Part shown: positions 6,830 to 48,222 of the stretch, in pieces
Layout of the letters: each line of letters opens with the position of its first letter
Position numbering within the stretch: position 1 is the first letter of the stretch
Assembly (NCBI GenBank): GCA_000091205.1
Contig: AP006501.2
Direction: 5' to 3' (one strand)
Source of the DNA: Cyanidioschyzon merolae
Lineage: Eukaryota
Length of the DNA stretch: 64,000 nucleotides
Program-made: the position numbers and the translations under genes
Notes under the pieces: generated by a model
What the model saw: only the letters and a program-made list of their open reading frames with translations
Told to the model about the DNA's origin: nothing
Databases searched by the model: none

Positions 6830-6830
<1 letters not shown>

Positions 6831-6869
<39 letters not shown>
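6831..6869. repeat. (GAT)13 microsatellite about 35 bp downstream of the ClpR-like stop codon
   Basis: gatgatgat... was read directly. Confidence 0.95.
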
Positions 6870-9411: not shown

Positions 9412-10001
9412 GGTCTCTCCTGCTCTCCATAACGATTGTCAGCAGCCGATGGATGTTGCTGGCAGCGTTCAGGTACCGATTTCGCTGCCCCGGGTCGCTT
9501 TCGATGCATGATATGTACCGACGATAGTTGCGGTCTGCGCTTCGCTTGCCAGTTGCATCTTCTTCGTATACGGCCGCGGTGTACTCGTCGCTGCGATGAA
9601 ACTTGGCTCTGATTAGGTGTTTCCACACGTATCGATCGCGCGTCCTCTTCCCAGCGTCGTCCTGTCGTACGTGATTTCTTGCCTCATCGCTCGGTAGATG
9701 CCCTTGACGTGTACAGAGGGTTCCGCACGATGCACTCGTCTGTTTCCGCACCCGGTGAGGTACACAACGATCCCGGACTTGTTCTGGACGGATCCATCGG
9801 CGAGCGTGCTGCCCGCTCCACATGCACAAGTGCGTGCTGCTCCATTCGATAGAGGATATGCGGTACAAGATGTTGTCCGCGATGAAACAAGTACCAGAGG
9901 AAAGCTCCAGGCTCGAGAAAAAGTCGAGCCATTTCGATCTGTCTACGTGCCTTTTGTACAACGCTATGACGCTAGCTCCATCGAAAGCGATCACCGCGAT
10001 G
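9412..10001. repeat. Copy 1 of a ~590-bp near-identical (about 98-99%) duplicated segment; it contains the 5' part of dispersed-family element F1 and a stop-free 211-aa minus-strand ORF
   Basis: It is identical base-for-base to 39590-40179 apart from a few substitutions and indels (e.g. tgatttcttgcc vs tgatctcttgcc). The flanks are unrelated. Confidence 0.9.
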
Positions 10002-10150
10002 ACTCGAGTCCGCGACCAGGTCCCTCTTCCGTCCAAACAGAAGAAAAGGAGCGTTTCGAAGCATATCCCCTGAAAGGCATCATGCTGCTGTCAAATACCG
10101 TTTCGTTGACGACCACATAGACAGAAGGAGTCATCTTTCGAACATTCTTG
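9858..10150 (+). repeat. Dispersed ~300-bp repeat family, copy F1
   Basis: It shares 5' ...GATAGAGGATATGCGGTACAAGATGTTGTCCGCGATGAAACAAGTACCAGAGGA and 3' ...GCGATCACCGCGATGACTCGAGTCCGCGACCAGG...TCATCTTTCGAACA with F2-F5 (about 65-75% identity). Conservation is seen in two reading frames, which is nucleotide-level not protein-level. Confidence 0.7.
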
Positions 10151-10622
10151 ATTAGTTGACTGGCAAAATTTTTTTGAATGTCCGGCATGAGCTTGACAAC
10201 GAGTCGTCAAGAGGCGACGTTGCGTATTTTTCATCACCAACTTAGCGGCACGAATTGTTGCGCTTACGAGTTGATCTAGAATTGAAAGATCGAAAACTTG
10301 GAAGAATACGTGATTCGGGCGTGCCGATCGCCAGGAAAGGAGAAGAATGAGGTCTCCGATGTATGAATCGGATCATGATATCGCTCCGTTTAGGAGTCCG
10401 AGGGCGAAGTCGTCACGAATCGTTTTGCTTTCGATGGTGCAACGAATTCCAGCTGCAAGGCGTCAACCGAGCAACCCTGCAAGAACAACCGAGAATCCGA
10501 ACACCACGTATGAACCCTCAAGCCCTCATTCCTGAAATTCGAATGCCATGGCTTTACATCTATAACAAGTTCAGAGCAGAAATCGCAAGGCAGGAGCAGA
10601 TCGACTCGGTCAGTATTCCGTT

Positions 10623-11461
10623 TTAACCTAGTACCGGTCTCCGTAGAAGAACCAGGCCCAAATAGAAGGCACTGCAGCCAGTTCGCTCGGCTTCGTCATC
10701 TGGTACCTTTCGCTCGTACGCGCTGCTGTGATAACTCGGTGTGTTCGTTGCTGGAGGCGAGCTCGCGTCCTCCTCTGGTGTCGTCCTCAGCACAAGTCCG
10801 TTCTGCGTGAACGAGAAGTTTTCGCAAGGTCCCCGGGTGTAGGTCGTAGCCTTCCAAAGGCCACGGTTCACGCACCGTACCGATGGCGGCTGCAGTGGCC
10901 CTTCGAACTTGCGTGAGGAGGTCCAGGAATCGCTCCGTGCAGCCGTTGATACCCGCCTCGTCAGGCGGCAAAACTGCAAGCACGTTAACTGTATCGCAGG
11001 TCACCTGTTGCAGCTGCAGCAGCGCTTCTTCAGATTCATCCAATTGTTCCAGAGCCGCCGCTTCTGCAGTGTCTCGGAGCAAAACGTCGTAGAGCGCCTT
11101 GGTCGATGCTCGTTGCTCCATTGCCGAGCTTCGTTCCCTCGAAAACGACGTTTCGCAGTGACTGCGTTACGCGCACCGGCCAGGCTGGTGTTCCAGACGC
11201 CCCAAACCGCGGCTCGGAGACTTCTTTTTCTGGTTTCGATTCCGTGAAACTGACCAGCGTTCTCGGACTGCGCGGTTGCTTTCGACAACCAGCCAAGCGA
11301 GCACTATCCGTCTCGTACGAACGTAACGGGGCTCCACTGGTGTCAGAGGCTCGCTCCTCGTCAAGCGTGGCTCGTTGGAATATGCTCTTTGCAGCAGCAG
11401 CAGCAGCAGCAGCAGGAGCGCCTTGAGCGCGATCGACACTGTCGGGCTTACAGTCCTTCAA
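10623..11461 (-). CDS. Possible small gene split across two or three frames (hypothetical; a frameshift or a short intron would be needed)
   Basis: Adjacent same-strand ORFs 11036-11461, 10696-11121 and 10623-10979 lie in different frames and have protein-like sequence (e.g. MEQRASTKALYDVLLRDTAEAAALEQLDESEEALLQLQQV). Call is speculative. Confidence 0.2.
11392..11418. repeat. (GCA)9 microsatellite
   Basis: gcagcagcagcagcagcagcagcagca. Confidence 0.9.
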
Positions 11462-13864
11462 CTCAGTCCTGTTTCATCGCCGCTGAAAGTATTCGAATGC
11501 TTTTTCGCAGTTTGAAGCAGGAAGTCGAAAACACGATGCCATGCGCCGTTTAAATCCTGGACGAGTTGTCTGTAAGATATATGATTTACCGGACAGTTCA
11601 AGGAGTACTGCATTCCTCATTCAGGTCAGTCATACGTCAGATAGTTGAGGAACACTGAATAAAACAAGTACATGCGCTCCGAGCCAAAAATCGATATTCT
11701 TAAAACGTGCGTTCTGTCAATGATAGGAAACGGCCAGTTGATCACCTTACGGAAAGGAAAAGCGATGATAGTAGAAACCAGTGGCGTCTCTGTTCCTCAA
11801 TAGTTTGTTCGTGTGGTCCTGAAAACTTTGGGATACATTGCGAAAACAAGTCCGATTTCATGCACTGCCATCTCGAACCGAAATCACATTTACAGAATTC
11901 CTGAAACGTTGCGGTCGTAGTGAAGCACAAGGAATTTGGTTTGTTTTCCCAGTCGATGGGATTTGCCTCGAACGAAACGGTCGAGGCGTCTGTCGGTATT
12001 CGAGGGAGCCGGGAGCCTCTCGTTTGTACGATCGAAATCGATGAGAACGACGAAATCATCATCTGGTCTACGTGCAGTGGGTTCCAGTGACGACCTCAGT
12101 TTCTCTCGTAGGGAACGGTCACACTGCAGCAACGAATGTACCGAATCATTCAAGACATTTCACCCTGACGTTTGGCGACGTTCTTTTGTTAGACAACGTG
12201 GAATTTCACCGTTCCCGTGCGCTGGAGCTTCTGCCGATTCTATCGGGGAATAAACCCGCTTTTCATTCCTTGGTACTCTCCGTGGCTGAATCCCATCCAA
12301 AGATTGTTTTATAGTGTGAAACGTAATGATCGCTTCACTGGACGAATCGCAAGATCGTCCAGCACACGATGACACACCGCGCCAGATTACGTCTTTCTTC
12401 GGCGAAGGTCCTCACCTGAGGGCATAACGAAATGCGTTCATTTCCAAGAACAAAAGATCTAATGGATGAGCTGGGGCGTGCACCTCAGGAGGTCTACATG
12501 GAAAGAAGGCAACGGGGCGTTTCGGCGACAGAAAAGTACCGAAGGCTGACAGAGCAGCCAATGCAACGGAGGGCACGACCCCGAGGATTCCTTGCATGAA
12601 CGAGTACCACCAAGGGCAATAAACGCATGGAATTCGTGAACCGACACATCACTGCTGCCATCAGTATGAGGAGATGTGCGTTGCTGAAAACGAGATCCGC
12701 GGACCTGAAGCGATCGAACCTTGTGGGGTAGACGCTCAGGCTCGAAGTCTACAGGGAAAACTCTGAAGCCGATAGCAGGCGGCCTGGTCAAAAGAGACTG
12801 GCTGGCGTTAGCGCATGTGTAGATATATCCACTTTATGGTCGTTGGACACTGTTTTGTGTTTCGCTGATCACATATAGAGTTTTGTGCGGCAGCGTCAGC
12901 CAGGCGGCGGCAACGCGTCTCATGGAAAGAATCCTATCGTTCAGCATCACAGAGTGAACCGGAGCAACACGGAATGACTGCACAGCGTCTGCAACGATCT
13001 GGTCTGAGCTTCTCCGTATCACAAAAATGCTATCGGAACGGCGTGGTGATCGCTTCCCCGGATGCCGATGACAACCGAGCATCCGTGCGATGTCTGGTTC
13101 GTCTCATCCATTGCATATCATGATAGAATCCGCCGCCCTACCTTTCGCGAAAACAGACAGCGCCATCAACCTTCCGGGACGCGTAGTAGCGTCCTGTGCT
13201 GATCTACCAATCTAGCGTTCAGTATTGAGCGTTGCATTCTGGGTATGTCGCGCACAGAATCAGTAGCGAGCTGCGCGCTCGCCATATCACGGGCAGAGGT
13301 GTTCCTTGCAGTTGCGTGCTTGATGATGTCAAATATGTGCATCGTGTTTATCAAAAATGTGTCGCTGTGCGCGTAACCGCAGGTTCCCAGCACGAGAATG
13401 TCGAAGCGACCTCATGGAACGATTGCTTTCAGCTAGTGTCTTGTGAAGACAGCGCCAAGCCGACTAGCTTCCGACCGGAAATCGCTGCCGCGTATCGAGC
13501 GTCCCAGCTTGCACCTGTGTTAGGCTGCACTGCCCACAGCATCGCTGCGTGCAACCGTAGCGCCCAAAAACAAGGCCAGTCTAGGTCTTGTACAACATAA
13601 AAACGTCTGGATCAGAACTGAAACCTCTTTCTCGATGACTGGCTCCTAACACGCCCGCATCCAAACGATTGAGGCTTGTATCATCTGCATGACAAGGGCG
13701 AAAACCTGGACCAGAGGACACCGAAGTTTCTCGTGTCCATAATATACAGATATATGCAGTTACTCCCTCGCACCCAGGGTCGCCGCGCCCCTCCGTGTAC
13801 TCCTCGCTGCTACCAGCTGGTAACGTGCGACCTCCTGAGCGTCGGGTTCCAGTACGCGTCTGAA

Positions 13865-15944: not shown

Positions 15945-15986
15945 GGCATTGCTGATGGCGGCATTGCTGATGGCGGCATTGCTGAT
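15945..15986. repeat. 15-bp tandem repeat x3 (GGCATTGCTGATGGC) upstream of IspE
   Basis: gcggcattgctgatggcggcattgctgatggcggcattgctgat. Confidence 0.85.
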
Positions 15987-16130
15987 CGAGGCTGCGGGTG
16001 ACGTGGAGGTGCTGGCCCCCAGGGCGCCCTGCACAGCACAGCTGCCACCGCGGCGGCAGCAGTCGCTCCGGGCGTCGGGTATACCGGACGTGCCGCTCCG
16101 TGGCCTTGGACGTTTTGGGCGCTGCGTGTT

Positions 16131-19415: not shown

Positions 19416-20399
19416 CAGGACCGGTCAACTTGCACCTAGGCGCCTGCTACGTTTCTCGTAGGACTCGCTCGTGAAGACTCCTCGACACGCCAGCGGTATC
19501 GACTGGCGATTGGCGCAACGTCCAGTGGACGCCAGTACGCATCCCACTTCTCCGACGCCTCATGCTTGATGGTATTTTATTCGAGTCCGCCTCGGTTTTG
19601 GTGCACGAGGCAGGCATTCAGCGTATAAACCAGCACTGGTCATCAGATCGTTGCGTTGAAACAGCGTGGATATCGCAGGATACACAGAAAAATGGTCCGA
19701 ACCGCTACTTCCTTTTACGTTACCGATGGACCTGGAAACGCACCCAAGTCATCCGACTCGCGAGCAGAGTCGGTATCGCCACCATACGGCTACGCTTGCG
19801 TCCATGGCGGTGTAGGATGCTAGGGATGCACGAATACGGACGAACATACTGGATTACAGATCTTTCACGATGCTTACAAACTTCAGCCTTTTCGGGCGTT
19901 TTCACGACTGCCTCCTTTTTGTCTCGTTCATCTGCGCCTTGATATACGTCGGCCTCTACTTTCACTCGAGCTCCGTTATCAGCAGTGAAAGGATATTGGT
20001 GGCGGTGTTCAATGCATGAATTTGCTGGTTTCGGTTATTGTTGACGCGTTTCGTGCACAGGCGGAGGTTGCGATCGAAGCATCGCGTGCCATGTTCGTTT
20101 TTCTTGAGTAGGGCGTCGGTGCGCCCTTCACAGCGGTGACACTTGACAGTGGTCAGAACTTTTCATAAGCGTCAACCGCAACTCCTTCTCCTCTTCTTTC
20201 TCGTCGACGTGTCTCGCTGTGACGCCTGGACGCTCGTTTCATAGTTCGCTGCACCCCGCTGCTGACGGCTACAGAAGGTTGCCATCTGAGCGCTTCTCCA
20301 TTTCCGCGCCCGGTGCCGTTCTCTGCGATCACGGGCCTCCTCTGGCCGGTTCTCTCGGCGAGTACGCTACTTGACGCACACCCAAAAGCGCACGCTGTT

Positions 20400-20712
20400 C
20401 CAATAGGCAGAGGATTTGCGGAACGCGATCCTGTCCATGGCGAAAAAAGTACCAGAAGAATTACCCCGGCTGGAGATCAATTCGAGAAACGCCGATGCGC
20501 CTTCGCCCTCATCGTGCAAAGCAGTGACGTACGCTCCACTGAAAGCGATCGTTGCGATGACTCAAGTCCGAGTCCAAGACCAGTTGTCATTCAGAAAACG
20601 ACTAGACGGGAGCCTCTGGAAGCATTTTCCATGGGAAGTATCGTGTTGCTGTGGAATCCCGTTCCCTGGAAAGGCTGCGAAGCGACGAGGATTCATCTTT
20701 TGAACGAAATCG
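20400..20712 (+). repeat. Dispersed ~300-bp repeat family, copy F2
   Basis: AATAGGCAGAGGATTTGCGGAACGCGATCCTGTCCATGGCGAAAAAAGTACCAGAAGA ... GCGATCGTTGCGATGACTCAAGTCCGAGTCCAAGACCAG ... TCATCTTTTGAACGAAATCGACGATTTCG. Confidence 0.7.
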
Positions 20713-21430
20713 ACGATTTCGTGTGACATGTTCATTGAATTTTGGGTGTGGGCTTTTGATCAAGGCATCCAAGAACGACGTCGAGTTTTCACTCGTCATC
20801 ACTCCAGCGGCGCGCATGAGTTGCCTCGAAACACTAAGCTCGAAAACTTGAAGCATGCTAGATTTTAGCGTGTGACACGTAACGAAATTCGAGGAGCAAC
20901 GACTTGTACATGTGCACGGAATAACTACATTGATGGTGTTACGAGCGCTTTGTCCGTGGTCGTTGCGCATGATCTCGACTAGGGTGACGCAACGGATTCC
21001 AGCGGCAAAGAATCGAACGAGCTTTCGTCCGAAAATGCTTTCAAGAGTCCTCCACCTACAGATGAATCCGGAAGCCTTTATCGCTCCACTTCCAGCGTTG
21101 AATCTGTTGATCTAAGCTCAGAAGAGAAATCGCACGAAATGAACAGTTCTAATAGTCCACTGGTCCAGTTTAAGCAGCGAAGCGTCTAGCCGCTGCTAGT
21201 GCGGCCGCTTGCCTCCCTGGGCGCCTAGTCTGCGCATCGTACGCGAGACGCTGGAGCAGCTGGCGCGTTCCCAAGGAAACAAGCGCCCTCGTCAAGCACG
21301 AGTTCCCCGTGGCCGATGACCACATCTTCAGGAAGGCGAGACCAGTCGGGTCCTCGCTGCTGGAATCGTCGCCAACGCAGCGACAACGAAACTCAACAAA
21401 ACAAACACCACTGGGAAGTATGTCATCAAT

Positions 21431-21786: not shown

Positions 21787-21827
<41 letters not shown>

Positions 21828-24505: not shown

Positions 24506-25699
24506 GTTCGATCACCGAAAACCCTTTGAACTATAAGGTACCCCCTCCCTGTTCAGCTCTGGGTTCTACGGAGTCGCTGAGACGAGGCCGTACCAGCCTA
24601 GAGCAGGACACGTTTTCGGCGATTATCCCAAGCACAGCGTGTGTGTTGATGATCTCGGAATGCGCTGCGTTGCGCAGTGCGCGGCGGCGCAAGGCACCAC
24701 AGCGAACGTGGCATCGCCGGGGCGGGCGCCACTGCCGCCATTTGAAATCGCAACCGCAAGCAGTCGTCATCGGTAGCGGGCGGAAGGCTTCGCGCGCGCA
24801 TCTAGGCTGCGGGTCCGGCGAAGAGGCTTCAAGCCTCAAGTCCATAAAAAGGATGTTTTGTCTCTTTATGAAAAGCCATATGGCCTGACGTGGCTGCTGA
24901 TGCCATTCCGACGGCCTGGCGGGCCTCCTGCTTGCCTGGGTACCGATAGAGATCCCGCACGGTGGAATCCCTCGTTTGGTACTGCGATCCTGCACCACGG
25001 AAATACGCTGATCGCTGATACAGGCTGGTATTTGACGCGGTGTTGCCCAGCGACCAGTAGTGGCTGTTTGCGCATCGCCCCGGTTCCCAGGTGCGATTTC
25101 GGGGTGCACGACGGCCCATATAAGCATGACATGGGACGGGTCCACGTCCGGAGCTCGGGCGCGTACGTCAAAGTTTCTTTCTGCTTCCATTGTGATCAAC
25201 GCAAGCGCTTTGGGGTTTTTTCTTAGCCTGCTTCCTATTCTTCTCCCTTACCTACAGCTTCAACGATGTTAGTCGCTCCTGCTTCGTTCTCAGCAGCTGA
25301 AGGATATGGATGGCAGGGTCAAGTGCAGATCTCGGCGCTTCCGGCCGTTGTCGACGCTCTGCATGCAGAGGCAAAAGTAGCGGCCAACGCTTCGTTTGCC
25401 ATTTTCATCATCTTTCCAGACAGTCTCAATGGCCTTTCGCAGCAGTAGCACCTGACCGTGGACAGGTGTTCCCATATGACGAAGGTAGCTCCTCCGCCGA
25501 GGCCGCTCTGTTTCACCCGAACACCAGCCATATTGCTCGGTACGTGACTTTGGCGGGGCACGTAGTGCTCCCCTGGATGCCATTCTCCGATTCCGCGATT
25601 GGTGGTGTACCCAAACGAACCTGCTTCTTCTGGGTGATGCGCTCGGTGCGTTCCCTGTCCGACGCATACGGAAGCGCATGTCTTTCCATTTGAATGAGG

Positions 25700-25995
25700 A
25701 TTTGTGAAACACGATACTGTTCATGATGGTAGAGATACCGGAGGCCAAATCCAGGCTGCTGATCATGTCGAGCAAAGCCGATATGTCTACGCCACCCTTG
25801 TGCATAGCGGTGACGCAATCTCCATCGCCAGCGGTCGCTGCGATGATGCAAGCAGGAGTCCGAGACCTTGCCGACGCAATCAGCAGCGAGCGGAGCTTCT
25901 AGCAGCACAGACCGTAAGACAATTCATGCTGTTGTTGAATGCGGTATCGCCGATAACCTCAAACACAGGAGAGTTTCCCTCTGAACGAAATCGAT
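25700..25995 (+). repeat. Dispersed ~300-bp repeat family, copy F5 (more diverged)
   Basis: CGATACTGTTCATGATGG...ACCGGAGG at the 5' end; GCGATGATGCAAGCAGGAGTCCGAGACCTTG internally; CTGAACGAAATCGATTTCATCG at the 3' end. Confidence 0.55.
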
Positions 25996-26927
25996 TTCAT
26001 CGCTTGACAAGTTTAGTGAAAGTCCGGCCTCAGAATGGGAAGAAGTCGTCCATGGAAGACTGCCTGTCGTTTTCCTCGAAAACCAGCAGTGCCAATCGCT
26101 ACGCCCACGAGTATCCTCGAGTCAGAAAGATCGAAAAACTCAAGCATGCGTGATTTGAGCATGTTAAACGTAATCAGAAGAGACGTGTGGTTGCTTGTAC
26201 GAGTGAATTGGATAGTTATATCGGTAGTTTTACGAACGTTTGTTCGAGGTCATTGCGATTCTTCATGTCAACGATCACGGAAAGAATGCCACCAGCATCG
26301 CGTCCAAGGAGCTAACGGGAAACAAGGATCCAGGATCTTCAAACTACACATGAGTCTTTGAACTCAAGGTTCTCCCACTTCCAGTGCCAAACGTGTGCGT
26401 CTAAAATAGTTCGGGGAAAAAAATCGTAAGACTGGATCAGCGTTGGCGATTCCGAGTTCCCTTTTACGATTTTTGACACCGACCAGGGTGTCTCGTTCGT
26501 CTGCGGGCGTTCGAAACAACACCAACGGATTCTGTTGCTGGTGAGTCTGCTCTGGACGCAGCGGTCTGCGTCTTAATTAAACGTTACCAGAGGACGCTCC
26601 GGAAACGTGTTTGCGCTGGAACCCTTCCGCGCAGAACCACTGACGCTGGGGTCAAGCGAACAGGAACCCACTGAAACCTGGTGGAACCTGTTGAAAGCTG
26701 CGGAATCCTGAACCGGCTACATTTTCGGACAAGACTCGGACAAACGCTGAACGAATCAGAGTCGTTTTCTGAGGCACTCGTGGACTCGAACGAGCGCAGC
26801 GCTGCTAAAGCACTGGAGCAACGAAACGTCGAGGGCGCTGCGCTTCAAACTCGCCAGCACCTGACGCACAAGACGCACCGCAAACTCGGGTACTAGTGGC
26901 TGCTAGGTTCTTACGGTTTGGGTCTCC

Positions 26928-29727: not shown

Positions 29728-30957
29728 TCAGGGTAAAGCCAGCGACTCTGGAAGCGCTGTGGAACCTGAAGTCGATGCCGCATCCGGTGCGCGTTCCCAT
29801 CGCAACGATCCATCCGTTCGTCGAAGTTGTTTGGCTGCTTCTCGGAGCGCACGAGCAGTTCGAGCACCTTCGACGTCTTCACGTTTGCCTGCCGACATGA
29901 ACTGATTCGTTGCAGCAGTTTCCAATGAAGATGAATGCCGATAGACCTCACCAAAGCTGGTCAGGTGGCTTTTCGGAATCATCGGTTCGCGGTCTCGAAG
30001 TTCTTTCTCGTGTCGCGGCCCATAGAGTGCATTCTTTGCGTCCGAAAGCATATCGCGAATGTCGACAAGCTCTCCAAAGTTGCGTAGCACCGCTCGTGAG
30101 GGATCCGGTGCATAGTCCTCAAAGTCCCGCCACGAAAATACGAAATGATGAACGATGGCTGCCACGAACATTTCCAAGCAGATCAACAGATCCTGAATGC
30201 CGGTTGCCACACTATCGGAGGTAAAGTCACCAACATCGGTGAGCCAGTGCCACTGCACGAGCAAGCCGAGCACCACACCCTGCCACCAACTGAAGAATAT
30301 GACTGCCTTCACGCAGAGGAACTTGGGAAGCGGGCGGAAAGCCTGCAACAAGTCCTCCGTTGCCAAATACAACATAACCATCCAGTATAGCGCCCACGAA
30401 ACGCTGAGGTTCACCACAATCCAAATGTACGGATAACCATAGCACCAGAAAGGCGAAGCAGTTGGCGTCTTGGGCTGTACATACCAACCGTGCCGGTTCA
30501 GGAGCACTGCTACGGCGGCAGTGAGCGGTTTCAACAACACGAACTGCAACACCGCGAGGCGCACTTTCTGCAGGAATCGAGCGCCCAGTACCTCCGGTTG
30601 GAAACACCAGTTCATGGGCCAAGGGTGTGGTAAGGGGGGTTTCAACTCCAGCAGATACGCCAGAGAGCGTTCCCCGCCCGCTACGTTGATAAGCAGCGCC
30701 ACGAACGAGTACAGGGTGTAGGCCTCGTACGAGTCGCGCCCCAGATCAAAGTACAGCGCCATTTCCGGTATCAAGAGAGAAAGCCAAGAAGACAACGAGT
30801 ATACCGGAACCATACCTAGGATTCGACAAATGTAAAGCTGGTACTCTGGACGAACATAGTGTCGCAAGTGCAGCCAGATGTTCTGGAGCGACAGTGTCAG
30901 CGCGAGGAGGCTGAGGACCCCACCGCCCAGTCGTGCAAGTAGCAGCGCCTGAAACAT
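29728..30957 (-). CDS. TMEM184 / organic solute transporter alpha-like (DUF300) multi-pass membrane protein
   Basis: Seven predicted TM helices are present. The N-terminal block YICRILGMVPVYSLSSWLSLL and the overall hydropathy resemble TMEM184/Ost-alpha family proteins. Confidence 0.65.
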   Translation of the reverse strand: MFQALLLARLGGGVLSLLALTLSLQNIWLHLRHYVRPEYQLYICRILGMVPVYSLSSWLSLLIPEMALYFDLGRDSYEAYTLYSFVALLINVAGGERSLAYLLELKPPLPHPWPMNWCFQPEVLGARFLQKVRLAVLQFVLLKPLTAAVAVLLNRHGWYVQPKTPTASPFWCYGYPYIWIVVNLSVSWALYWMVMLYLATEDLLQAFRPLPKFLCVKAVIFFSWWQGVVLGLLVQWHWLTDVGDFTSDSVATGIQDLLICLEMFVAAIVHHFVFSWRDFEDYAPDPSRAVLRNFGELVDIRDMLSDAKNALYGPRHEKELRDREPMIPKSHLTSFGEVYRHSSSLETAATNQFMSAGKREDVEGARTARALREAAKQLRRTDGSLRWERAPDAASTSGSTALPESLALP

Positions 30958-31823: not shown

Positions 31824-33964
31824 AACGTTTACCGCAAGAGTCTACGGCATCGACGGGTGAATAGTGCGTCGCAGGATAACTCGTTATGAAGACGGATTAG
31901 CGACGGATTCGACTCCAGCTCTGTTCTAGAGGGCTTATCCTAGGAATCCAAGGCACCGCTGGGTTTACGCTGCGTCGCCGGTACACACAGGATGGAGGAG
32001 CGTGATTGCTGCACGTACCTGCGCTAGATTCGAATTCAGCTGGATGCACTGGGACGTTCACCTCAGGGTTTCAATGCGGGAGTCGGAACCCTTTCCGTCT
32101 AGGGATGCATCTACCTATGTGTTCAGAGCCCGCCTGGATCCAAGGAGTCGTCCACTGTACGCCATAGGATTGGCGATAGTGAGGTAGGCTCTAGTACGGG
32201 CTATGTGTTCTTCGTCATCGACAACAGAGTTCCGGTGCTTGTGCATCGTATTGTAATGCAAAGTTGACGAGCGCGCAGGTTCACTTGCGCGTTGTCCAAA
32301 CCAAGCCTCGTGATTATGGTGCCATTTCACATGAAATGTCTCGTTGGGTCGAAGAAACGCACATTTTCCAACAGAGATGGCATTCTGCGAATCAGTTTCT
32401 GATGTACATAAAAGTCACGTTACCCTGCTGTTACGAATACGCTCACTTTTCCCGATAGAAACGACAGGATGCGAATCAGTGTCCGATGCATAAAGCAGGC
32501 GTCACACTGCAATCCCCCGAGTTGTTGTCGTTATGCCTAGTGTGGTGAATGCCGGAACATCTGTACCAGTACGCCACTTTTATTCTTGTTGTTCGTTTTT
32601 CTCGCAGGTATCCAGCAAATGGATTGCATTCCATAGACTGCAGAAAGGCCCTCGACAGGCTCTACGCTTACACTGGTAGCTTGCGAAATGCAGCTTACCT
32701 GTCCACTTCAGTTATCCTACCTTGAGTAGGCAGATAAACCAGCCTTTTCCTAGGCCCTGTTCCTGAGGCCGTGCACCTGAGACAGAGACAATCAGACGCT
32801 GCCAAGACGACAGTCGCCTTGTCAATACTCTGTACGCCGTAGGTTCTGTAAACAATACTACTGAACAAGCCACAGGATGTCAGGTTTTCATATCTTTGAT
32901 ACGAACGGTGATATAGAGACACCGATGGGCAAAGAAAAAAGCTTGCATCTATGCGAGACCTTCGTGCGATGAATAACGCACTACTGATTTCCTAATGAAA
33001 TGCGAATGCCTCTTCATGGAGTAACGGGCGTTCGTCTCAATCGATGAGGATTCATTCCCGAGAAAACTGGCAGACCTGTATGTCGATACTCGAAATAGGG
33101 CGTACCGCTGTTCGTGAAGAAGAATCAAGCGAGCATTTCAACAACCTCAACCCGAGCGGTGATTCGACGGTATGGTAACGTACGCATTGCCAAATGTACA
33201 GACTCATTCACCACATCATCCTTCGTGGAAGCGCCCTTTGCACCTTCTCCTTCTGACATTCTTCTGTTCTGCTTGTAGACAACGGCATTTTCCATCACTT
33301 AAAAGCGTTCAAGGAGGAACCAGCTGCGTCTGGGGCTGAAGTGCGCTTCACGCGCGGCCATTTTCCATCGTTCAGTCCAGTCCAAGGCGTCTTCTCTGAT
33401 GTCAAAGACCATGCGTATACGCATGAACCAATGGACAAGCCTTTGGTATTTGTGACAGCGTCCGTCGATATGTCGTCCACTGGTACCCCGCACACCAGCT
33501 CCGAACGATTTTGTTGCTCCTCTTGTCGTGCGTAAGTGGGAGCGAAGGGGTTCTTTTCAGTTCACTGGCATGCTCGCGACCGAAAAGTTGACGAGAAGCT
33601 ACCTGAAGAACAGCAGATACATGTATAGAACAGACGAGTTTCGGATGCACCGTTCACCCCCAGCGTCTAGGTCCCGCGGAAAAACACACGGATGTAGAGC
33701 GCAGCGGCTATACCCATGCAATCCTGCCGCGTAAGGGAGTAACGGGAAAAACCACCAGACGAAGGAGTGGGGCGCCCTTCGGAACAGAGCACCAGGAAAA
33801 TAAGGAAGGGGAAACTGTCCAAGCGGAAAACAGCAGCATAGAATCGTTATCAAGACTTCGCTTGCAAACAAATCGACAGTGAGACTGTGCCCAAACGTGA
33901 GACGCAGGCCACCAAAATGAGTCCCGTGGCTTCTTAGACGAGGGCGGCTCGCCTGGTTTCCCTC

Positions 33965-34165
33965 GAGTTGACACACCTCGTTAACAGGCCGCTCACAGGA
34001 GTTCCAGATGCAGTGCTGCCATCAATCCACAGTACTCTGTCATTTTTCACGATCAATCCTTTTCGAGTTGACACACCTCGTTAACAGGCCGCTCACAGGA
34101 GTTCCAGATGCGGTGCTGCCATCAATCCACAGTACTCTGTCCTTTTTCACGATCAATCCTTTGCA
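33965..34165. repeat. 100-bp direct tandem duplication (x2), ~330 bp upstream of the TnpB-like fragment A
   Basis: GAGTTGACACACCTCGTTAACAGGCCGCTCACAGGAGTTCCAGATGC(A/G)GTGCTGCCATCAATCCACAGTACTCTGTC(A/C)TTTTTCACGATCAATCCTTT occurs twice. Confidence 0.9.
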
Positions 34166-34496
34166 CAGCATCGAATGCTCGGCACGGAGGATGCCACACA
34201 ACCTGCTTTCTCCAGAGATCGGTATAATCGATATTCGGGCGTAACAGACACCCGGAGGCATGCCAACAAATGGTGCAAGGGTGTCAGGTCCCATGTCGAC
34301 GCCCTGAGCAGCGTACCGAGTAAAGAAGGGTATTTCGTGCGCTCCATTCGCAGAGTTCAAGAGCGTCCGAATTGCATGCGATGATGACCCTTGACACGAG
34401 TTCACGAGGCGCCGCCGAGGCTGCCAACGAGAACGCTTCTCGTACGACGAAGAGAAGCGTTCATTCGCAGATATGTTCTATGCGCTGGGATAAGAA

Positions 34497-35060
34497 ATGA
34501 CCGACAACTCGCGTCGGATGGTGCTAGCCTGTGGTGACCAAGGACCTGGTGTCGCGCGCCGTGACTTCACTCCTGCTCTCTCGACGAGAGCGCAAAACGA
34601 ATGCAGGCATCCATTGTTTTCGATGCCCATCGACGCGTCCAGGACGGCAAAAACACATAACGAGCACGAATGTGCGCCGAATCACTTGCAAAATAAGTCG
34701 ATGAAACAAAGATGGATACACGGGATTGTGTTTGGTGCCCAGAGCAAATGCCAGATGGCGAGGAATTCGAACACGAGCGGCTTGCTATCGAGTGATTCTA
34801 TTCGAAATCATGCGTACAAGCACGGTTTGCATCGAGATCTGGACGCATCGATCAACATCTGGAAATGTCGCGTGCTTCGGGAACGTCCATCGGCTTCGTG
34901 TCTAGCGGACTTGCCTTTGGAATCAATCAGTACCCAGACTGGGCGTTGTGCTCAAGCGCTGTGGTCTCATGATGAGAAGCAAAACATTGATCAGGAGAGA
35001 AGTGAGTAGTTTTTTCTGAGTCCAAAGCACTGGTATGGTACTATTTTAGCTCTCCAGCAA
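34497..35060 (+). pseudogene. Fragment resembling the C-terminal OrfB_Zn_ribbon / RuvC-III region of a TnpB/Fanzor-type (OMEGA) nuclease (copy A). The homologous region continues out of frame after the stop.
   Basis: ...KCQMARNSNTSG...HAYKHGLHRDLDASINIWK compares with TnpB C(x2)CG...H-[AR]-D-V-N-A-A-x-N-I. It is a paralog of copy B: NIxKxxVLxxRxSxxCLAxxPxE is shared. The next block HWYGTIL (35037-35052 gcactggtatggtact) matches copy B's in-frame HWYDTRL but is frameshifted here. No intact RuvC-I/II was found upstream, and stop codons lie at 34245, 34308 and 34491 in frame. Confidence 0.4.
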
Positions 35061-36640: not shown

Positions 36641-37256
36641 ACTTCGACGTGTTGTTCACTGCTTGGCACTAGAGCCGAGAGTCGCAAGTGACAGCGGGCT
36701 GGCGCTGCTGTCTACAGCGGGGAAACGTTTGATCGAACCAGAACCCTCTCTACTGCGAACGTACGGTTCGCGGGCAGGCGCCAAGTGACCGTTCCACTCC
36801 AAATCAGTCAACTTTAGACAACTCGTCGACCAAACCTCCACTTGGGACAGGGCTTCGATCCATTCAGTGACCCTTGTGGTACGAGGATGAAGTCCAGTAC
36901 CGAGTTCCTGGTACCAGTTTCTCCGCAGCGTTCTACGACGCTGCGCTTCAAGCCGATGCGCTGCTGCGATGCGTCGTGCGGCACTGAACGCATCCGCAGG
37001 CTCATGTTGTTTTGATACTGGGCTTTGTTGTGGAACTTGCTAGGGAAGCATCTAGGTCAGCGCTGAACCAAGGCCAGAACGGATGGGGCCACTCACTCGA
37101 ACGCCTCTTCTTCCAACTTTGAGGCGGCCGGAACACTGCGAAACAACTGCACGCAGTTACCCGTGCCGTACTCGAATGAAGCTGTATTCCGAACGAGGCC
37201 GGAATCCTGACTCCACTTTTGGATTCACGTCTGATCGGTGCTCATTCAGGAAAATC

Positions 37257-38396: not shown

Positions 38397-39589
38397 CCCC
38401 TGCAGAGTTCATGCAGCGAGCTCGTGCATGGAAGGTCTCCTGTTCTGAATGTCGCGTTGGAACGCTCGAGGTCGTTACCTGGGATTCGCTCCACGCTCAA
38501 TGCGCACCAAATGCGATGTGGCATTCTCAGCGGCATCATTCCATTAACATTTGAGACTGGTTATCGCGCATTTTCGCATCCGGTCAAACTGTTTTCGTGG
38601 TAATGCGCGACATGCCCTGAAGACTGCGAAACATGCCGCTGGACGTTCCTTGGACGGCTGCATTCGCAATGCCGATGGTGCGGTCGTTCTTGATAATGAA
38701 GACATCGGACATATTGTGCCAAACTTTGTGATTCCGCTGGTCGCGTGCCCGCTACCCCAGAATATCCAAATAACGAGCTGTGGACGCGCCCCAGCGAGTG
38801 ACGCTGGACACAAGACGACGCTGTTTCTGCCACGAACGATTGACTCGGTTATCCATGATGTATTTCATTGCGGTGACTTGTAGTTGTTCTCGTTGCATTT
38901 GATGCTCGAGCTGGAGCGCTCCCCCACCGTTGACTGCAGATGAAATGGAGACGACATCCGATGCTGTTTTCGTCGAAGCATTTACTCATTTGGATCATAG
39001 GACGAGAGAGCACGCCAGGCTGTGTGCGAATTTCTCGGATGCCGGAATGATGCGGAAGGCCGCATCACTGACTGAATCGTTTTTCGCGTCAGCACATGGC
39101 GATGCCCACGGGAGAAATCGTTGCTTGCCTAACTGAATGCTTGCAGTGACAGGCTGCAAGTGCATTTACGGCAACATGTTCTAGCATTATCAATGAAATA
39201 AATGCACCCTAAACGTTTGCCCAGCTCGTGCCAGAAACCCGAAATACCGATGCAAGAGCGGAATCCTGCAGAGAGACAGCTTCCGCCAAAGCCACCCGAA
39301 CAGCGCCTAGCGTTAGCAACGTCAGTCGACCTGGGCGCAAGACGCCCGGTTGCATGGTATTCGCTGCCTTTTTCGTCGCATCTATATGCTTGGTGTTCAC
39401 GAGGGTAGCTGTAGCGCCACGAACAGTGATGAATCCTCGTCAGCATAGAATGGAATAGGTCTTCTCATGTGACATGGGCATACATGCGAAAGTTTGGGGC
39501 TCTCCCCATCGTTAGAAGCACCAGCTTTTGCGGGATTTTTCTTCAACTGCTTCCTTTTTCTTTGGCATATCGCTGGCTTTCCATAGGTT

Positions 39590-40179
39590 GGTCTCTCCCT
39601 TCTCTCCATAACGATTGTCAGCAGCCGATGGATGTTGCTGGCAGCGTTCAGGTACCGATTTCGCTGCCCCGGGTCGCTTTCGATGCATGATATGTACCGA
39701 CGATAGTTGCGGTCTGCGCTTCGCTTGCCAGTTGCATCTTCTTCGTATACGGCCGCGGTGTACTCGTCGCTGCGATGAAACTTGGCTCTGATTAGGTGTT
39801 TCCACACGTATCGATCGCGCGTCCTCTTCCCAGCGTCGTCCTGTCGTACGTGATCTCTTGCCTCATCGCTCGGTAGATGCCCTTGACGTGTACAGAGGGT
39901 TCCGCACGATGCACTCGTCTGTTTCCGCACCCGGTGAGGTACACAACGATCCCGGACTTGTTCTGGACGGATCCATCGGCGAGCGTGCTGCCCGCTCCAC
40001 ATGCACAAGTGCGTGCTGCTCCATTCGATAGAGGATATGCGGTACAAGATGTTGTCCGCGATGAAACAAGTACCAGAGGAAAGCTCCAGGCTCGAGAAAA
40101 AGTCGAGCCATTTCGATCTGTCTACGTGCCTTTTGTACAACGCTATGACGCTAGCTCCGTTGGAAGCGATCACCGCGAC
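39590..40179. repeat. Copy 2 of the ~590-bp near-identical duplicated segment. It is truncated relative to copy 1: similarity to the dispersed family ends at 40179, whereas copy 1 continues to ~10150.
   Basis: The alignment to 9412-10001 was read directly. The minus-strand ORF 39397-40266 shares the same 190 aa. Confidence 0.9.
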
Positions 40180-40847
40180 ATCCAAAAACAGAAGCGAACT
40201 ATGTATGAGCAACGAAATACCAATTGCTTTCTCTCCACGGCAGACGTCGAAACGTTGAACAGCCATCAGTATTCTCGAAAGTTTGCCTTTTCATTAGGAA
40301 GGTCCCGTGACCCACACGAGTCTACGAAGCCCGTGCTTCATGATCTCGCCAGTGCCGAGTGCTATGGCGCGATCTGAGCAACTCTTACGGAACGCAGTTT
40401 GTTCTGGGACTAGGGGCGGGGCGGCTGCATCAAGATATGTCCCTGGTCGCAATGGTCTCCCAGCATATCGCTTCGTGCTATCACAGGCCGTTGGTCTGTC
40501 TGCACAGCCTGCAGGCTCCCAGAATAATGAAGGATCCCGATTCTGTGACCAGTGAAGCACGCCTGGAGCCGAATACCTTAATGGTATCGCATAGCCGTTC
40601 TGTCTCCGTACTGCATATGCACCAGCGGTGTAAGCGCACCTTCAGGTGCATCACAAAAGGTTAGGTGCACGACAGAGCATACGACATAACCAGTACATCC
40701 GAGAGAAGGTCTGAAAAATGGAACTTCAAGCTAGGGTGTACTATCATGGACGCTTTCCCAAAAGCCAATATCCATCTCACAATCTAGCACCCATGGTCCA
40801 TGGAAACGGCCTGTCAAACGAAAAAAGGTCCAGCGATCTCCGCGATG

Positions 40848-41458
40848 TATATGAGCGCGCGCTCACAGAAACGCATCGCCGCCTATGCGATCATCAGAAG
40901 AACAGATTTTTTTACTAGGGAAAGCCTGGAAAAGCGCGAGCGCGCGCTCACAGAAAAGCATCGCCGCCTATGCGATCATCAGAAGAACAGATTTTTTTAC
41001 TGGAAAGAGCCTGGAAAGGCGCGAGCGCGCGCTCACAGAAACGCATCGCCGCCTATGCGATCATCAGAAGAACAGATTTTTTTTACTAGGGAGATCCTGG
41101 AAAGGCGCGAGCGCGCACTCACACAAACGCATCGCCGCATATGCGATCATCAGAAGAACAGATTTTTTTACTAGGGAGAGCCTGGAAAGGCGCGAGCGCG
41201 CGCTCACAGAAACGCATCGCCGCATATGCGATCATCAGAAGAACAGATTTTTTTTTACTAGGGAGAGCCTGGAAAGGCGCGAGCGCGCGCTCACAGAAAC
41301 GCATCGCCGCATATGCGATCATCAGAAGAACAGATTTTTTACTAGGGAGAGCCTGGAAAGGCGCGAGCGCGCGCTCACAGAAACGCATCGCCGCATATGC
41401 GATCATCAGAAGAACAGATTTTTTACTAGAGCCTGGAAAGGCGCGAGCGCGCGCGCTC
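40848..41458. repeat. Tandem array of ~7 units of 79-88 bp (minisatellite). Each unit has a perfect 12-bp palindrome GAGCGCGCGCTC, a 10-bp palindrome CGCATATGCG and a T6-T9 run.
   Basis: The unit AGCCTGGAAAGGCGCGAGCGCGCGCTCACAGAAACGCATCGCCGCATATGCGATCATCAGAAGAACAGATTTTTTTACTAGGGAG recurs at 40923, 41008, 41094, 41179, 41267, 41350 and 41429. ORFs spanning it are artefacts. Confidence 0.9.
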
Positions 41459-41709
41459 CCCAGGCGGCCGGAAACGCCGCCGTCGCGTCGTCGACCTCGA
41501 TCGCCGGCGCTCGCAGCGTTCGGAACAGGCCAACGGCCGGGAGGCGTTTCCCTGTTTGTTCCTTCGCTCGCTTGAGCGCTTGAGCGCCAGCTCGTGTTCA
41601 AGCAAGTGTACGAGCTCTGGTTTGCGTAAGTTTTCAGCATCTTCAGATCAGTATCGTGTATCGTTAGGATCGTTGAACAGCTCGATCTTGCGACCTGGAG
41701 AACTGCGTT

Positions 41710-44454: not shown

Positions 44455-44775
44455 ATTCCATGGTATAGAGGATCTGCAGAATGCGATACTGTCCATGTTG
44501 AAGCAGACACCGGACGGAAGGCAGATGCAGGATGGAGAACAAGTTCAGAAACCTTGCATCTGTCTTCGCTTCATATGCGCAAAGCGATCATGCATGCTCC
44601 AACGAGAGCGGTCGCTGTACTGATTAGAGTCCAATTCCAGGATCCGTTTCCACATAGGCGGGAGAGCATGGCGCTGGAAGACCCAAAAAGGAACTACACC
44701 AGCTCCAACGACAAGATCGTACAAGGAGTGTGCACGGCGTTTTGTTACGATACCGATAGATGAGTTTCGAACGTC
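44455..44775 (+). repeat. Dispersed ~300-bp repeat family, copy F3
   Basis: GGATCTGCAGAATGCGATACTGTCCATGTTGAAGCAGACACCGGA at the 5' end; GAGTCCAATTCCAGGAT internally; GAGTTTCGAACG at the 3' end. Confidence 0.55.
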
Positions 44776-45236
44776 CTGTACACACCATGAACTGGGGTGC
44801 AAACTTCAGAAAGTCGAGGTGGAAAAGTGCCAGCGGAGCCCTGAGGATATAAAAAAGTATGGACCGCTGATGGAAGAGCAAATGGAAAGGAGAGCGAAAG
44901 TGCGAGGATTGCTTGCGTCATTAAGTACAACCAGTGATGGCAAGAAACGTATGGAGTTTTTGAACCGAGACCTGAACGCCGCTACCAGTATACGGAGATG
45001 TGCGGTGCTGGAGAACAGACCTCCAGAGTAGACAAGAGAGAACTTTATTGGACAACCTCTCAAAGTCGAACTATATGAGAAAAAGTTGGAAGCAGTAGTA
45101 GGTGGCCGGTCCAAAAAGACAGAGGCGTCTGCACGTTAGTTGGAGATGTTTTGTCTAGCGCGGGTTTCTCGCCACTACTGTACCACTGGCAGCAACGTTT
45201 TTCTTTTGAAAGACGTTTGTTTCCAGGGGCCTCTCT

Positions 45237-45917
45237 ATGGCATCAGCACCGAAGAGGCTGCGGGGCCGTCAGGGGCCGCTGCCAGCGCGCTCACCACAAG
45301 CACTCGACGATCACGCCCGCAAACTGCTGGTCAGCAAGTTAAAAGAGGTTATTCGGACGGATGACTCGGAGCATGCGGTTGCGAGTCCTTCTCCGCGACC
45401 GCCAGCACATGCCGCGAAGGACGCGCTCTCCCTAGACGCACAGACGGAGGCGCTCCAGGCGCGTTGGAAACGGACTCGAAGGCTCGCACGACAGCAGCTT
45501 GGGTACCGCCGCTTGCCTGATCCATCAGAGGACGTTGAGCTGGAACTGAGTTTACTGCGCACTGCTACTCGAGGCACTGTCCAGCTTTTTAACCTGATAC
45601 AAGAGCGAAGAGCCGCTCAGGCCAAAGCATCGGATGTTCGAGCACGCGCAGAACGCTCTCGTCTCCTCGAGGCCCGGTCACGCAGCTTCCAGGCTTCACT
45701 GAGCATCCCGTCGTTGTCGTTGTCGTCGTCGTCGAACCTTGGTCAACCTGATACTTCATACGGCTGGCAGGCCTTCTCCGAGCACTTTTTACTGCCTGAG
45801 ACGACCGACGATAGACGAGACAGCGAAGCGAGTTCTCTTTCGACAACTGCGGCAGCGCAAGAGACGCCTTTTGATGCAGCTTCCGCCTCGGAGGGAGATA
45901 TGTCGGCTTCCGAATGA
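45237..45917 (+). CDS. RRP15-like pre-rRNA processing protein
   Basis: LRTATRGTVQLFNLIQERR matches the RRP15 LQRIATRGVVQLFNAVQKHQ. The C-terminal GWQAFSEHFLLP matches GWTILRDDFMMG. The tail is acidic and Ser-rich. Confidence 0.7.
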   Translation: MASAPKRLRGRQGPLPARSPQALDDHARKLLVSKLKEVIRTDDSEHAVASPSPRPPAHAAKDALSLDAQTEALQARWKRTRRLARQQLGYRRLPDPSEDVELELSLLRTATRGTVQLFNLIQERRAAQAKASDVRARAERSRLLEARSRSFQASLSIPSLSLSSSSNLGQPDTSYGWQAFSEHFLLPETTDDRRDSEASSLSTTAAAQETPFDAASASEGDMSASE

Positions 45918-47884
45918 GGTTCGGGTAGCGACCAGAGTCTTTGCAAGGCCTCGGATGCGAGATAGGATTCTGGGACGCACCGCATACCATCGAAAGCTGC
46001 TCTTTGCTCAGAGCGAGGTTTGGAGGCATGTTGCGGCCTCGTGTCTTGTATGTTAGTAGGCGTGTGGGCTTGCATGTGTTTGTATGGGCACATCCGCATG
46101 TACATGTGTGGATGTGCAATGAACACGTACTTTCATGCTCGGACCGTGGACGAGAGCCACAGTAGCAAACGCTTTCACCGAGACGCGCTAAATGGTCCAT
46201 TGATCGCGAGGGTTCTCTATGACCCAAGCAGGCGACTGCGCTAAGGATCACTGGAGGCCACATCTCGGAACATTGCCAAGGTTCGGATTCTTGATGGGAG
46301 CCCGTCGTGGCGTAGCGCCAGAGATCCCCGTGTGCATACATGGAAAGCGATGTTCACCAAACAGCAAACATTCGCTCCTGTGCAGACGTTTCGGCATTCC
46401 CCCGGTTCCGGTTTCGTCAATCGGATGGGACTAGAAACTCGAGCTAGTGAGCAGAACCGCGGACGCCGAGCTCATTGCGGGTTTCGTCCGGGGATCGAAT
46501 GACGTTTCTTTCGCTGGTTAAGCGTCGAATCTAGGGATCGTGGTATCGTCTGCGGGACGATGCAGCTCAGGTTGCACAAACGATGATGCGTTTCAGAGAG
46601 CATAAACGAAAGGACCCGAAGATCAGGGAATGCTTCCGCCCTGTCGTCCGTGGTGCTGCTGGCGCTGCCACTATTCGCGCCGCACTCGGGACAACACGTG
46701 CCGAACACCAGCGATATCATTTCTCTGAACGAGCTTGCTGTGCAGAAGAAACTGCCTCCAGGCCATTTACACCATCGTCTCGTGCTAAATGCCCGTGCTA
46801 GGGCGTTCCTGCAACACCGGATAGCGAAATACCTTTTCGACTCCGGAACAAGCGGCATGCATGACGTTGTCGTGGAGCCTAGCTATTGAACTTTTGACCC
46901 TTTCTGGCATCAGATATGACTTTAGCATGCGCGAGACGTACGGTTACGACGACGGTTCCTCGCTTTGCATGGCGTGGTGATTCTCAAGAGTGCACCTGCA
47001 CAGTCTGGAAGGCCGCGGTTTCCACCAGCGCATGAGAACACCATCCATACGGGGTTGCAGAGGACGCAGCGCAGCACTGGACTGCAACTCTCAAGTCATT
47101 GATCTGGGCAGCTGACGCCACGCTTTGCCTCACGAATATGCTTGTCAATGAAGGCAGGGGCGCACCTGATTTCTAGGTTGAAAGCATCCGCTTCATAGAT
47201 GAAGGATCGTCGATGCTAGTGTGAGGCGCGTGCGCAAACCTCCCGCACCAGCTGCGAGAAGTTCATTACCATCATTATTAGCAACGAATGGAGCGCGAGA
47301 CTTGCGCTCACGAAAGCACCACGACCGCGAAACCTATTGTCAGACGGGTACCTCGCCGGGCCCTAACGCCAACGATGGACAAGAGCGGGCCGTATCGTCA
47401 AGATAGGACCAACCACAAAAATATCAGATTGAAATGGAGGCCTGAACTGATCGCTCTGTTCCTGCCTTGAGATTGTTCGGAAATTGGTTTCAGATGTACA
47501 GCTTCTCTATTGGAGCTGCAGCAGTCAATGCTTTTGGATTCATAGATCGTTTGAGGCGTCAAGGTCGTGTTTTCCTACCGGCTGCATCCCTTGTCTGCCG
47601 CTGGAATTCGTGCCATCGCCAGATTCGAAATATGTGTCACACCCTATATCAAAATTTCGAATAGTAACTGATACAAAGATCTCATTCATTCGTAAAAGCT
47701 TCCACGCTGTAACTTTTTCTCTGCGTGGCATGCTCGAATCACGCGCGCTTCATACTGTCGACATTTCTGTTTCAGCGGAAGTTGTAGACACAGTCATTCG
47801 CGCTGCTGAAATGACGAGGATGCGGGTAACTTGATGACGTCCATTGACGACCTGTTCACTTGCTCATACGGAAAGTTCACTGAA

Positions 47885-48222
47885 CTTGTCACATGAAATC
47901 ATCGATTCCGTTCAAAACACAAATCCATCACGCTTCGTGGTCATCGACGAAACGACACTGGACTCCCAGAGGGTACCTGTCAGGGCATGTGCTCGCAGGG
48001 GCTCCTGTCTCTTGGAGTCGCACGGAAAGAGGTCTTGGAGTCGGAGTTTGGTTATCAAGGTGATTGCCTCCTGTGGAGATGGCATCGCCGTTTTGGATGA
48101 AGAACGCGTAGGATGACTGAACGTTCTCAACGCGATCTCCAGTCTGGATCCTCGTTCCGGTATGTGTTCGATCATGGACAACATCACATTCCACAAATTC
48201 TGCTATTGATCCGATACCTGCA
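47885..48222 (-). repeat. Dispersed ~300-bp repeat family, copy F4 (only copy in minus orientation)
   Basis: The reverse complement reads GCAGAATTTGTGGAATGTGATGTTGTCCATGATCGAACACATACCGGAACGAGGATCCAGACTGGAG ... GCGATGCCATCTCCACAGGAGGCAATCACCTTGATAACCAAACTCCGACTCCAAGACC. Confidence 0.6.

Follow-up and report, generated by a model that had tools for sequence, protein, structure and literature searches.

The 64-kb stretch of chromosome 19 of Cyanidioschyzon merolae 10D analysed here (the window) contains a family of dispersed intergenic repeats. Very probably these repeats all derive from a single non-autonomous DNA transposon of the cut-and-paste type, about 1.38 kb long and now dead, which is an internally deleted form of an element with a DDE_3 transposase gene and a Fanzor1 nuclease gene. 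The family is named family A, and its copies in the window are c1 to c7 (Table 1). It documents a second Fanzor1 lineage in C. merolae, linked to a DDE_3 transposase and to terminal inverted repeats (TIRs).

A first-pass annotation of the window had described six copies of a unit of about 300 bp. The copies are related pairwise at 64-69% identity over 150-680 nt (blastn, E=1e-12 to 1e-29), and all six listed intervals lie inside true members by both blastn and nhmmer. The nhmmer profile search of the window finds exactly seven members, the missed one being c7, which is reverse in the orientation of that annotation. The apparent similarity survives a proper multiple alignment, which holds across about 1 kb. 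When the flanks are extended, similarity begins and ends at identical points in all copies, giving a TIR-bounded unit of about 1.38 kb with defined ends, in place of 300 bp; full copies range from 1307 to 1503 bp. The coding sense of the family is on the strand opposite to the orientation first chosen. The three conserved blocks quoted earlier turn out to be the exact sequence of c2, each with one match in the window when three mismatches are allowed, and the other copies are about 65-70% similar to c2 there.

Family A extends outside the window. Hot-spring metagenome contigs were scanned with six 8-residue peptides taken from the family A consensus, and the 28 loci found reduce to 11 distinct loci with 12 family A copies, none orthologous to the window; one additional copy is present in another metagenome locus (L007). 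The seven window copies and these 13 copies form the 20-copy consensus used below. None of the seven window copies contains the exact scan peptides. The scan is therefore insensitive and the 20 known copies are a lower bound, the true copy number probably being many dozens or more. Of the 20 copies, 15 are full length with the same two ends. The metagenome copies nearly all cover model positions ~3-25 to ~1372-1392 of 1405, and this near-uniform span indicates that a 1.3-1.4-kb unit is what was amplified. One metagenome locus (L022/L023; Ga0080006_1230007, Ga0078972_1006771) holds two family A copies in opposite orientation about 2 kb apart, so that clustering of copies is not special to the window.

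The unit is bounded by TIRs of 24-26 bp (ACCCRTGTCAG...TAAAATGGAAC). The consensus left end, ACCCATGTCAGCATAAAATGGAAC, and the reverse-complemented right end, ACCCGTGTCAGATTAAAATGGAAC, agree at 22 of 26 positions (binomial P ~1e-8), and separate alignments of the left ends only and of the right ends only yield one common motif. In one metagenome copy (L032) a repeat finder places the TIR arms right at the ends of the element, and their 11 outermost nt are perfectly complementary (11/11). At the other side of the element, the stop codon of the Fanzor remnant is followed by a spacer of about 25 nt and then by the second TIR.

The Fanzor1 remnant was recognised in consensus sequences. The majority consensus of the seven window copies contains a long open frame that ends ...KCHRCDG...RNRHLNAAINILRLL...KRKQSQKKPAKAG at a stop codon, and by its motifs this end resembles the zinc-ribbon/RuvC-III terminus of TnpB or Fanzor proteins. 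It matches the Pfam family PF07282 with E=0.004, and the 20-copy consensus scores 27.2 bits against a cut-off of 26.3. The 7-copy consensus also matches an intact metagenome protein, P0003 (E=2.4e-31, 38% identity), which carries the RuvC-I motif GLDPGR and ...RNRDFNAAINIL. P0003 has 426 homologues in a library of 1.8 billion proteins, many of 600-850 residues, with the match in their C-terminal half; four of the ten homologues tested exceed the PF07282 cut-off.

A Fanzor1 profile hidden Markov model (HMM) was built from 40 of the P0003 homologues, without any window sequence. It matches two Fanzor1 proteins of solved structure, from Parasitella (9cf0, 3e-16) and from Spizellomyces (8gkh, 9e-11), and also the TnpB-like protein L79 of mimivirus. 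The same profile recovers all seven window copies, each on the strand that had been predicted, at positions ~556-710 of the profile, and it matches the 20-copy consensus with 179 bits over positions 541-710 of 715. The remnant thus comprises the last ~170 residues, with the RuvC-II glutamate, the zinc ribbon and the RuvC-III motif 'RNRDLNAAINIL'. The C-terminal module of the consensus reads ...VDIWEHLTTVKCHRCEG...CLCMKCVDN...RNRDLNAAINIL, the RuvC-III form being RDxNAAxNI. Upstream of this part no Fanzor match was found, and the WED/REC domains and the RuvC-I aspartate are absent from the family A consensus. The Fanzor part of family A is a remnant and not a gene. Sequence searches of the PDB with the 7-copy consensus, with P0003 alone and with a 5-row alignment gave no meaningful match, and an AlphaFold2 model of P0003 made without an alignment was unusable (predicted local distance difference test score 34).

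The transposase remnant lies upstream of the Fanzor part, in another frame. The 20-copy consensus matches PF13358 (DDE_3) with E=1.7e-10 and 41.3 bits (cut-off 28.6). The match covers profile positions 3-97 of 146, about two-thirds of the catalytic domain from its start, and the last (third) catalytic residue is absent. The consensus reads ...FVVVDETAFDS...GKGSWTRT.VIA.IA..GA.V.AL...FIMDSI.F.KSS., which, judged from the sequence, is the D...D pattern of IS630/Tc1-type transposases. Helix-turn-helix (HTH) families are matched upstream of DDE_3 in the expected order: HTH_32 (0.013), HTH_Tnp_Tc3_2 (5e-4) and HTH_33 (4e-4). A real open reading frame (ORF) of the metagenomes, P0156, which comes from another family A copy, matches DDE_3 with E=7e-6. 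Every window copy contains stops or frameshifts, and all seven align to the Fanzor consensus only through them. The transposase remnant of c6 stays in one frame for 156 codons with 3 stops, and the Fanzor remnant of c7 stays in one frame with about 9 stops.

The two remnants meet at one abrupt point, which is common to all 20 copies. The starts given to the six repeats in the first-pass annotation (9858, 20400, 25700, 40036, 44455 and 48222) coincide with this junction, so that only the transposase-derived part had been seen. At the junction c6 has a 123-bp insertion that is private to this copy, and an intron or a remnant of the parental element was rejected as its explanation for that reason. 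The common junction could also be expected if the DDE_3-Fanzor arrangement were the native structure of an element encoding a short fusion or two-frame protein, and upstream of the junction the consensus Fanzor frame does run for about 100 codons without a stop. However, this open stretch has no similarity to Fanzor, and the frames of the two remnants differ. The DDE_3 part ends before its third catalytic residue, and the Fanzor part starts at position 541 of 715, without RuvC-I. A native arrangement is therefore very unlikely, and an internal deletion remains the preferred origin.

The following course of events can be proposed. In the parent transposon the TIRs would have enclosed first a transposase gene and then a Fanzor1 gene. 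A single internal deletion would have removed its middle, roughly 2-2.5 kb to judge from the 3620 bp of PUl-1, and left a crippled product with both ends retained. The junction common to all 20 copies points to a single founder. Transposase acting in trans may then have multiplied this product to at least dozens of intergenic sites, after which neutral decay would have brought all copies to a divergence of about 28% from the consensus.

It is important to compare family A with elements of known organization. In PUl-1 and PUl-2 of Pythium ultimum a Mariner-type transposase gene is followed by Fanzor1, between TIRs of 24-33 bp (PMC3627910, supplement). The oomycete elements and family A share a DDE transposase of the IS630/Tc1-mariner class and Fanzor1, in one orientation and bounded by TIRs. 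Family A, from a red alga, holds the N-terminal part of the first gene and the C-terminal part of the second between its 24-26-bp TIRs. It differs in its length of 1.38 kb, as against 3.6-3.8 kb, in that neither protein can be encoded, and in that no TA target-site duplication is detected. There is also a likeness to other internally deleted non-autonomous DNA transposons, such as Ds relative to Ac or Stowaway relative to mariner-like elements: the TIRs are retained, the coding middle is lost, one deletion product would have been amplified and the insertions are intergenic.

Several observations weigh against the proposed origin. Elements of the IS630/Tc1-mariner class create TA target-site duplications. 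At the 15 full copies, a search for target-site duplications of 2-8 bp that allowed the ends to move by up to 4 nt found none above chance, and no TA flanks were seen; a 2-bp duplication could have eroded in copies that are about 28% diverged. Neither the window nor the metagenome scans yielded a longer parent copy in which the transposase and the Fanzor are both complete. The protein readings rest on consensus sequences: the single ORFs of the window copies have no match in Pfam, and no single copy in the window reaches a cut-off. The three HTH matches are all under their Pfam cut-offs. BLAST detects no similarity between the transposase remnant and the transposase of PUl-1, and the transposase profile matches no solved structure among the PDB sequences. 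Finally, the indices that assign the conservation values given below to parts of the element are a few nucleotides off, two rows having been dropped before the consensus was recomputed.

The amplified product might also have been more than a passive deletion derivative. In TnpB and Fanzor systems the guide (omega) RNA arises from the 3' end of the nuclease gene together with the element end. Family A retains exactly these parts, that is, the module that yields the guide RNA. It could thus have been a 'guide-only' satellite that used the Fanzor1 nuclease and the transposase in trans for homing or retention, and the terminal triplications at c7 and at 54133-54353, described below, could be scars of such activity. 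We consider this a long shot. If true, it would be a eukaryotic counterpart of the non-autonomous IS200/605 derivatives.

Fanzor1 elements have been described previously in this alga. Nozaki et al. (2007) counted 26 copies of retrotransposons that lack long terminal repeats (non-LTR), 8 class II elements and 253 copies of an interspersed element of 3.2 kb whose ORF weakly resembles WSV486 of white spot syndrome virus (WSSV) (PMC1955436). The WSV486-like element was identified by Bao and Jurka (2013) as the Fanzor1 element CMe-1A, which is 3169 bp long, lacks TIRs and occurs in about 150 copies with about 80% identity to the consensus; its 5' 635 bp also form TE-N2_CMe (PMC3627910). Only one Fanzor1 family is listed there for C. 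merolae, and one in WSSV (PMC3627910).

Family A might accordingly be a part of CMe-1A/TE-N2_CMe. Both are Fanzor1-derived, intergenic and old, with similar ages (~70-80% identity to consensus) in the same genome, and CMe-1A pieces lie beside c4 and c5 and 1.8 kb from c1. However, the published 3169-bp consensus and the protein from the supplement of that study (PMC3627910) show no nucleotide similarity to the family A consensus (blastn best E=0.59) and only 25% identity of the CMe-1 protein to the family A Fanzor C-terminus. This indicates that family A is an element different from CMe-1A. In addition, CMe-1A encodes a complete Fanzor of 734 residues, is reported to lack the TIRs that family A possesses (PMC3627910) and has no DDE_3 remnant. 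The identity of the two is hence highly improbable. The contrast between the published lineage, with neither transposase nor TIRs, and family A bears on how Fanzor genes travel. Family A may already be curated in Repbase, whose nomenclature (TE-N2_CMe, for example) implies that there are more entries without a classification.

The pattern of decay is that of sequences evolving without constraint. Identity to the consensus is about 0.72 throughout the element (TIRs 0.71, untranslated regions 0.67-0.70, Fanzor 0.73, transposase 0.72). The three codon positions share the same level of identity (0.72-0.735), and codon periodicity is absent. When 10D is compared with Yellowstone strains, family A has 10-12 differences per kb, compared with 4-5 in genes, 5-8 in other intergenic DNA and 7-12 in family B (a second transposon family, described below). 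The divergence is thus about twice that of genes. The last 230 nt, where a guide RNA would lie, have a consensus fold of -4.5 kcal/mol with 1 of 15 pairs compensatory, and no added conservation. Under neutral decay the copies are not expected to retain a guide-RNA fold. The uniform identity, the equality of codon positions, the strain divergence and the lack of a conserved fold together indicate that the copies are not under constraint, and they probably have no current function.

These values also bear on the possibility that the repeats are functional non-coding RNA genes or cis-regulatory modules under selection. The first-pass annotation had noted correctly that all copies lie between genes (NCBI annotates none of them as a protein gene, and the flanking genes take up consecutive BAM accessions) and that the similarity appears in more than one reading frame, the tblastx scores being about equal in all six. 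From the latter point it had concluded that conservation is at the nucleotide level, with a small-RNA gene family as one option. It is true that the family now evolves at the nucleotide level, but it was once coding: the copies are neutrally decayed remnants of two protein genes on the opposite strand, which can be recognised only in the consensus. Transcription of interspersed repeats has been reported in C. merolae, but that statement concerns the WSV486-like element (PMC1955436). Against a functional RNA or regulatory module stand the absence of any Rfam family or tRNA in the copies, the weak fold of the 3' end, the uniform conservation along the unit and a strain divergence above that of other intergenic DNA. 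The two protein remnants and the inverted repeats account for the full sequence. The probability of such a function is exceedingly small.

The other options of the first-pass annotation were a miniature inverted-repeat transposable element (MITE) and an element like a short interspersed nuclear element (SINE). The first is partly right: family A is non-autonomous and dispersed, and the TIRs are present. Nevertheless, its 1.38 kb is roughly twice the usual MITE limit of below ~800 bp, the remnants of two genes are still recognisable and a target-site duplication was not found. De novo MITE finders had reported zero MITEs in C. merolae (PMC3964958). A retroposon, either a SINE or a 5'-truncated element like a long interspersed nuclear element, can practically be dismissed in spite of the non-LTR retrotransposons counted in this genome (PMC1955436) and of c4 and c5 lacking one side, as most copies are full length with the same ends, these ends are mutually inverted, there is no tRNA (ARAGORN), RNA polymerase III head or A-rich tail, the internal remnants are of a DDE transposase and Fanzor rather than reverse transcriptase, and the two short copies were cut by other elements. 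The truncation point of c5 is the start of a CMe-1A 3' fragment, and the interval 44455-44775 given earlier begins correctly within c5 but enters this unrelated fragment from 44664. At c4 a piece of the 5' part of CMe-1A (TE-N2_CMe) begins 30 nt past the truncation.

The closest intact relatives of the Fanzor remnant are P0003 and P0005 (38-39% identity, E ~1e-30), and similarity of family A to intact relatives is seen at the nucleotide level too (nhmmer E=7e-13). P0005, an intact Fanzor1 of 551 residues, is the closest complete relative. It is encoded at 5569-7280 of a 7.7-kb contig with 56% G+C (L009, metagenome 3300035702), beside genes for an RNA ligase, a 2H-phosphoesterase-like protein and a Peptidase_S74 protein. 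A sequence matching the family A terminal repeat at 18 of 24 positions is located 32 nt after the P0005 stop codon, in the same position as in family A; the chance expectation of such a match anywhere in the contig is 0.006. Upstream of P0005 no 5' repeat matching family A and no adjacent transposase were found in this contig, and a scan of viral contigs (IMG/VR) with P0005 gave no relatives. Unlike family A, P0003 and P0005 are complete genes with the RuvC-I motif GLDPGR, with RNA ligase and Peptidase_S74-like neighbours and without an adjacent transposase.

Table 1. Transposon-derived features of the window (positions in the 64-kb stretch)
Feature	Position	Strand	Extent and identity	Junction	Other landmarks	Fanzor1 HMM E
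c1	9256-10638	-	full length, 1383 bp	9840-9857	5' TIR 10615-10638; transposase ATG ~10509; Fanzor stop 9305-9307; 3' TIR 9256-9279	4e-5
c2	19800-21185	-	full length, 1386 bp	20398-20415	Fanzor stop 19849-19851; TIRs 19800-19823, 21162-21185	2e-10
c3	25114-26483	-	full length, 1370 bp	25684-25701		0.03
c4	39433-40178	-	transposase side cut at 40178	40019-40036		3e-9
c5	43880-~44663	-	transposase side truncated	44456-44473		0.6
c6	47417-48919	+	full length, 1503 bp including private 123-bp insertion	48197-48337, surrounding the insertion	insertion at about 48198-48336	4e-4
c7	57300-58691	+	1392 bp	58081-58098		2e-4
Tandem array at c7 end	58618-58833		three 70-bp units, 87-88% identical		unit is terminal 70 bp of c7 including 3' TIR	
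Family B	2149-4342	+	~2.3 kb, 64-77% identity			
Family B (B2)	32573-34910	+	~2.3 kb, 64-77% identity			
Family B (B3)	54406-56713	-	~2.3 kb, 64-77% identity			
CMe-1A piece	12466-12808	+	71%, more decayed		1.8 kb from c1	
CMe-1A piece	40208-40816	-	75.6%, 5' 611 bp (TE-N2_CMe)		adjoins c4	
CMe-1A piece	44664-45215	+	89%, 3' end		truncates c5	

C. merolae is often described as having the simplest genome of a free-living eukaryote. Transposon debris nevertheless makes up about 17 kb of the window, or about 27% of the 64 kb: ~8.7 kb is family A, ~1.5 kb CMe-1A pieces and ~6.8 kb a second family, family B. Published counts for the genome are about 0.7% transposons plus one interspersed repeat of 5% (PMC1955436), while alignment-free masking flags about 28% genome-wide (PMC11050394). 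The value for the window is far above the former and close to the latter. These figures suggest that ancient transposon debris associated with Fanzor forms a large share of the intergenic DNA in this 'minimal' genome, and that the 'transposon-poor' genome holds more of it than reported. For annotation, family A is ordinary genomic debris; its regions should be masked as transposon remnants and not taken as sources of small RNAs or new genes.

The 3' part of family B contains the decayed C-terminus of a Fanzor1 (...FDESTQ.MQG...H..HRDLNASINI...), with 24-39% identity to the CMe-1 protein. At the nucleotide level family B matches neither CMe-1A nor family A, and it is probably an older Fanzor1 element. 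Families A and B as parts of one composite element were considered and rejected. Family B has a Fanzor C-terminus of its own, encoded on its own strand, and the neighbouring pieces at c1 and c5 belong to CMe-1A.

Tandem arrays are found exactly at transposon ends three times in the window. In the array at the end of c7 the TIR motif is repeated at 58668-58684, 58738-58754 and 58808-58824, and the array gives two extra nhmmer matches to model positions 2-68. At 54133-54353, three 71-bp units with 98-99% identity are made from the 3' tail of B3. The third, an 85/171-bp array at 40822-41504, begins 6 nt past the 5' end of the TE-N2-like piece.

The copies c1 and c4 are 30 kb apart, and their segments 9342-9999 and 39520-40178 show 95% identity along 660 bp and 99% along 300 bp; every other pair of copies stands at about 65%. 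The near-identical tract starts 88 nt inside the element and stops at the truncation point of c4. It looks like ectopic gene conversion between dispersed copies and not like segmental duplication. A further observation concerns c3. The ORF 24531-25190(-), of 219 residues, is called in many metagenome assemblies (a 9-member cluster) and, judged by consecutive accession numbers, is apparently not among the NCBI proteins of 10D. Its first ~77 nt fall within the terminal part of c3; the start of this ORF may be transposon-derived, or the ORF may be spurious.

The genes of the window encode eukaryotic domains: GLE1, Tfb4, mitochondrial carrier, diphthamide synthase and peptidase M3. The long ORFs have no introns and lie on both strands, and the G+C content is about 55%. 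The ORF 29728-30957(-) is identical to BAM83003.1/XP_005539039.1 of C. merolae 10D, and four others are BAM82996, 83000, 83006 and 83008; the locus tag of the last, CMS456C, places the window on chromosome 19. Yellowstone-type hot-spring metagenome contigs match the region at 99.3-99.4% identity. Inside B2, at 33963-34162, there is a direct duplication of 100 bp with 98% identity. Two copies of this unit are present in 10D and in three metagenome loci (L001, L003 and L004), and by alignment it is single in three others (L002, L005 and L006), which appears to be a copy-number polymorphism among strains.

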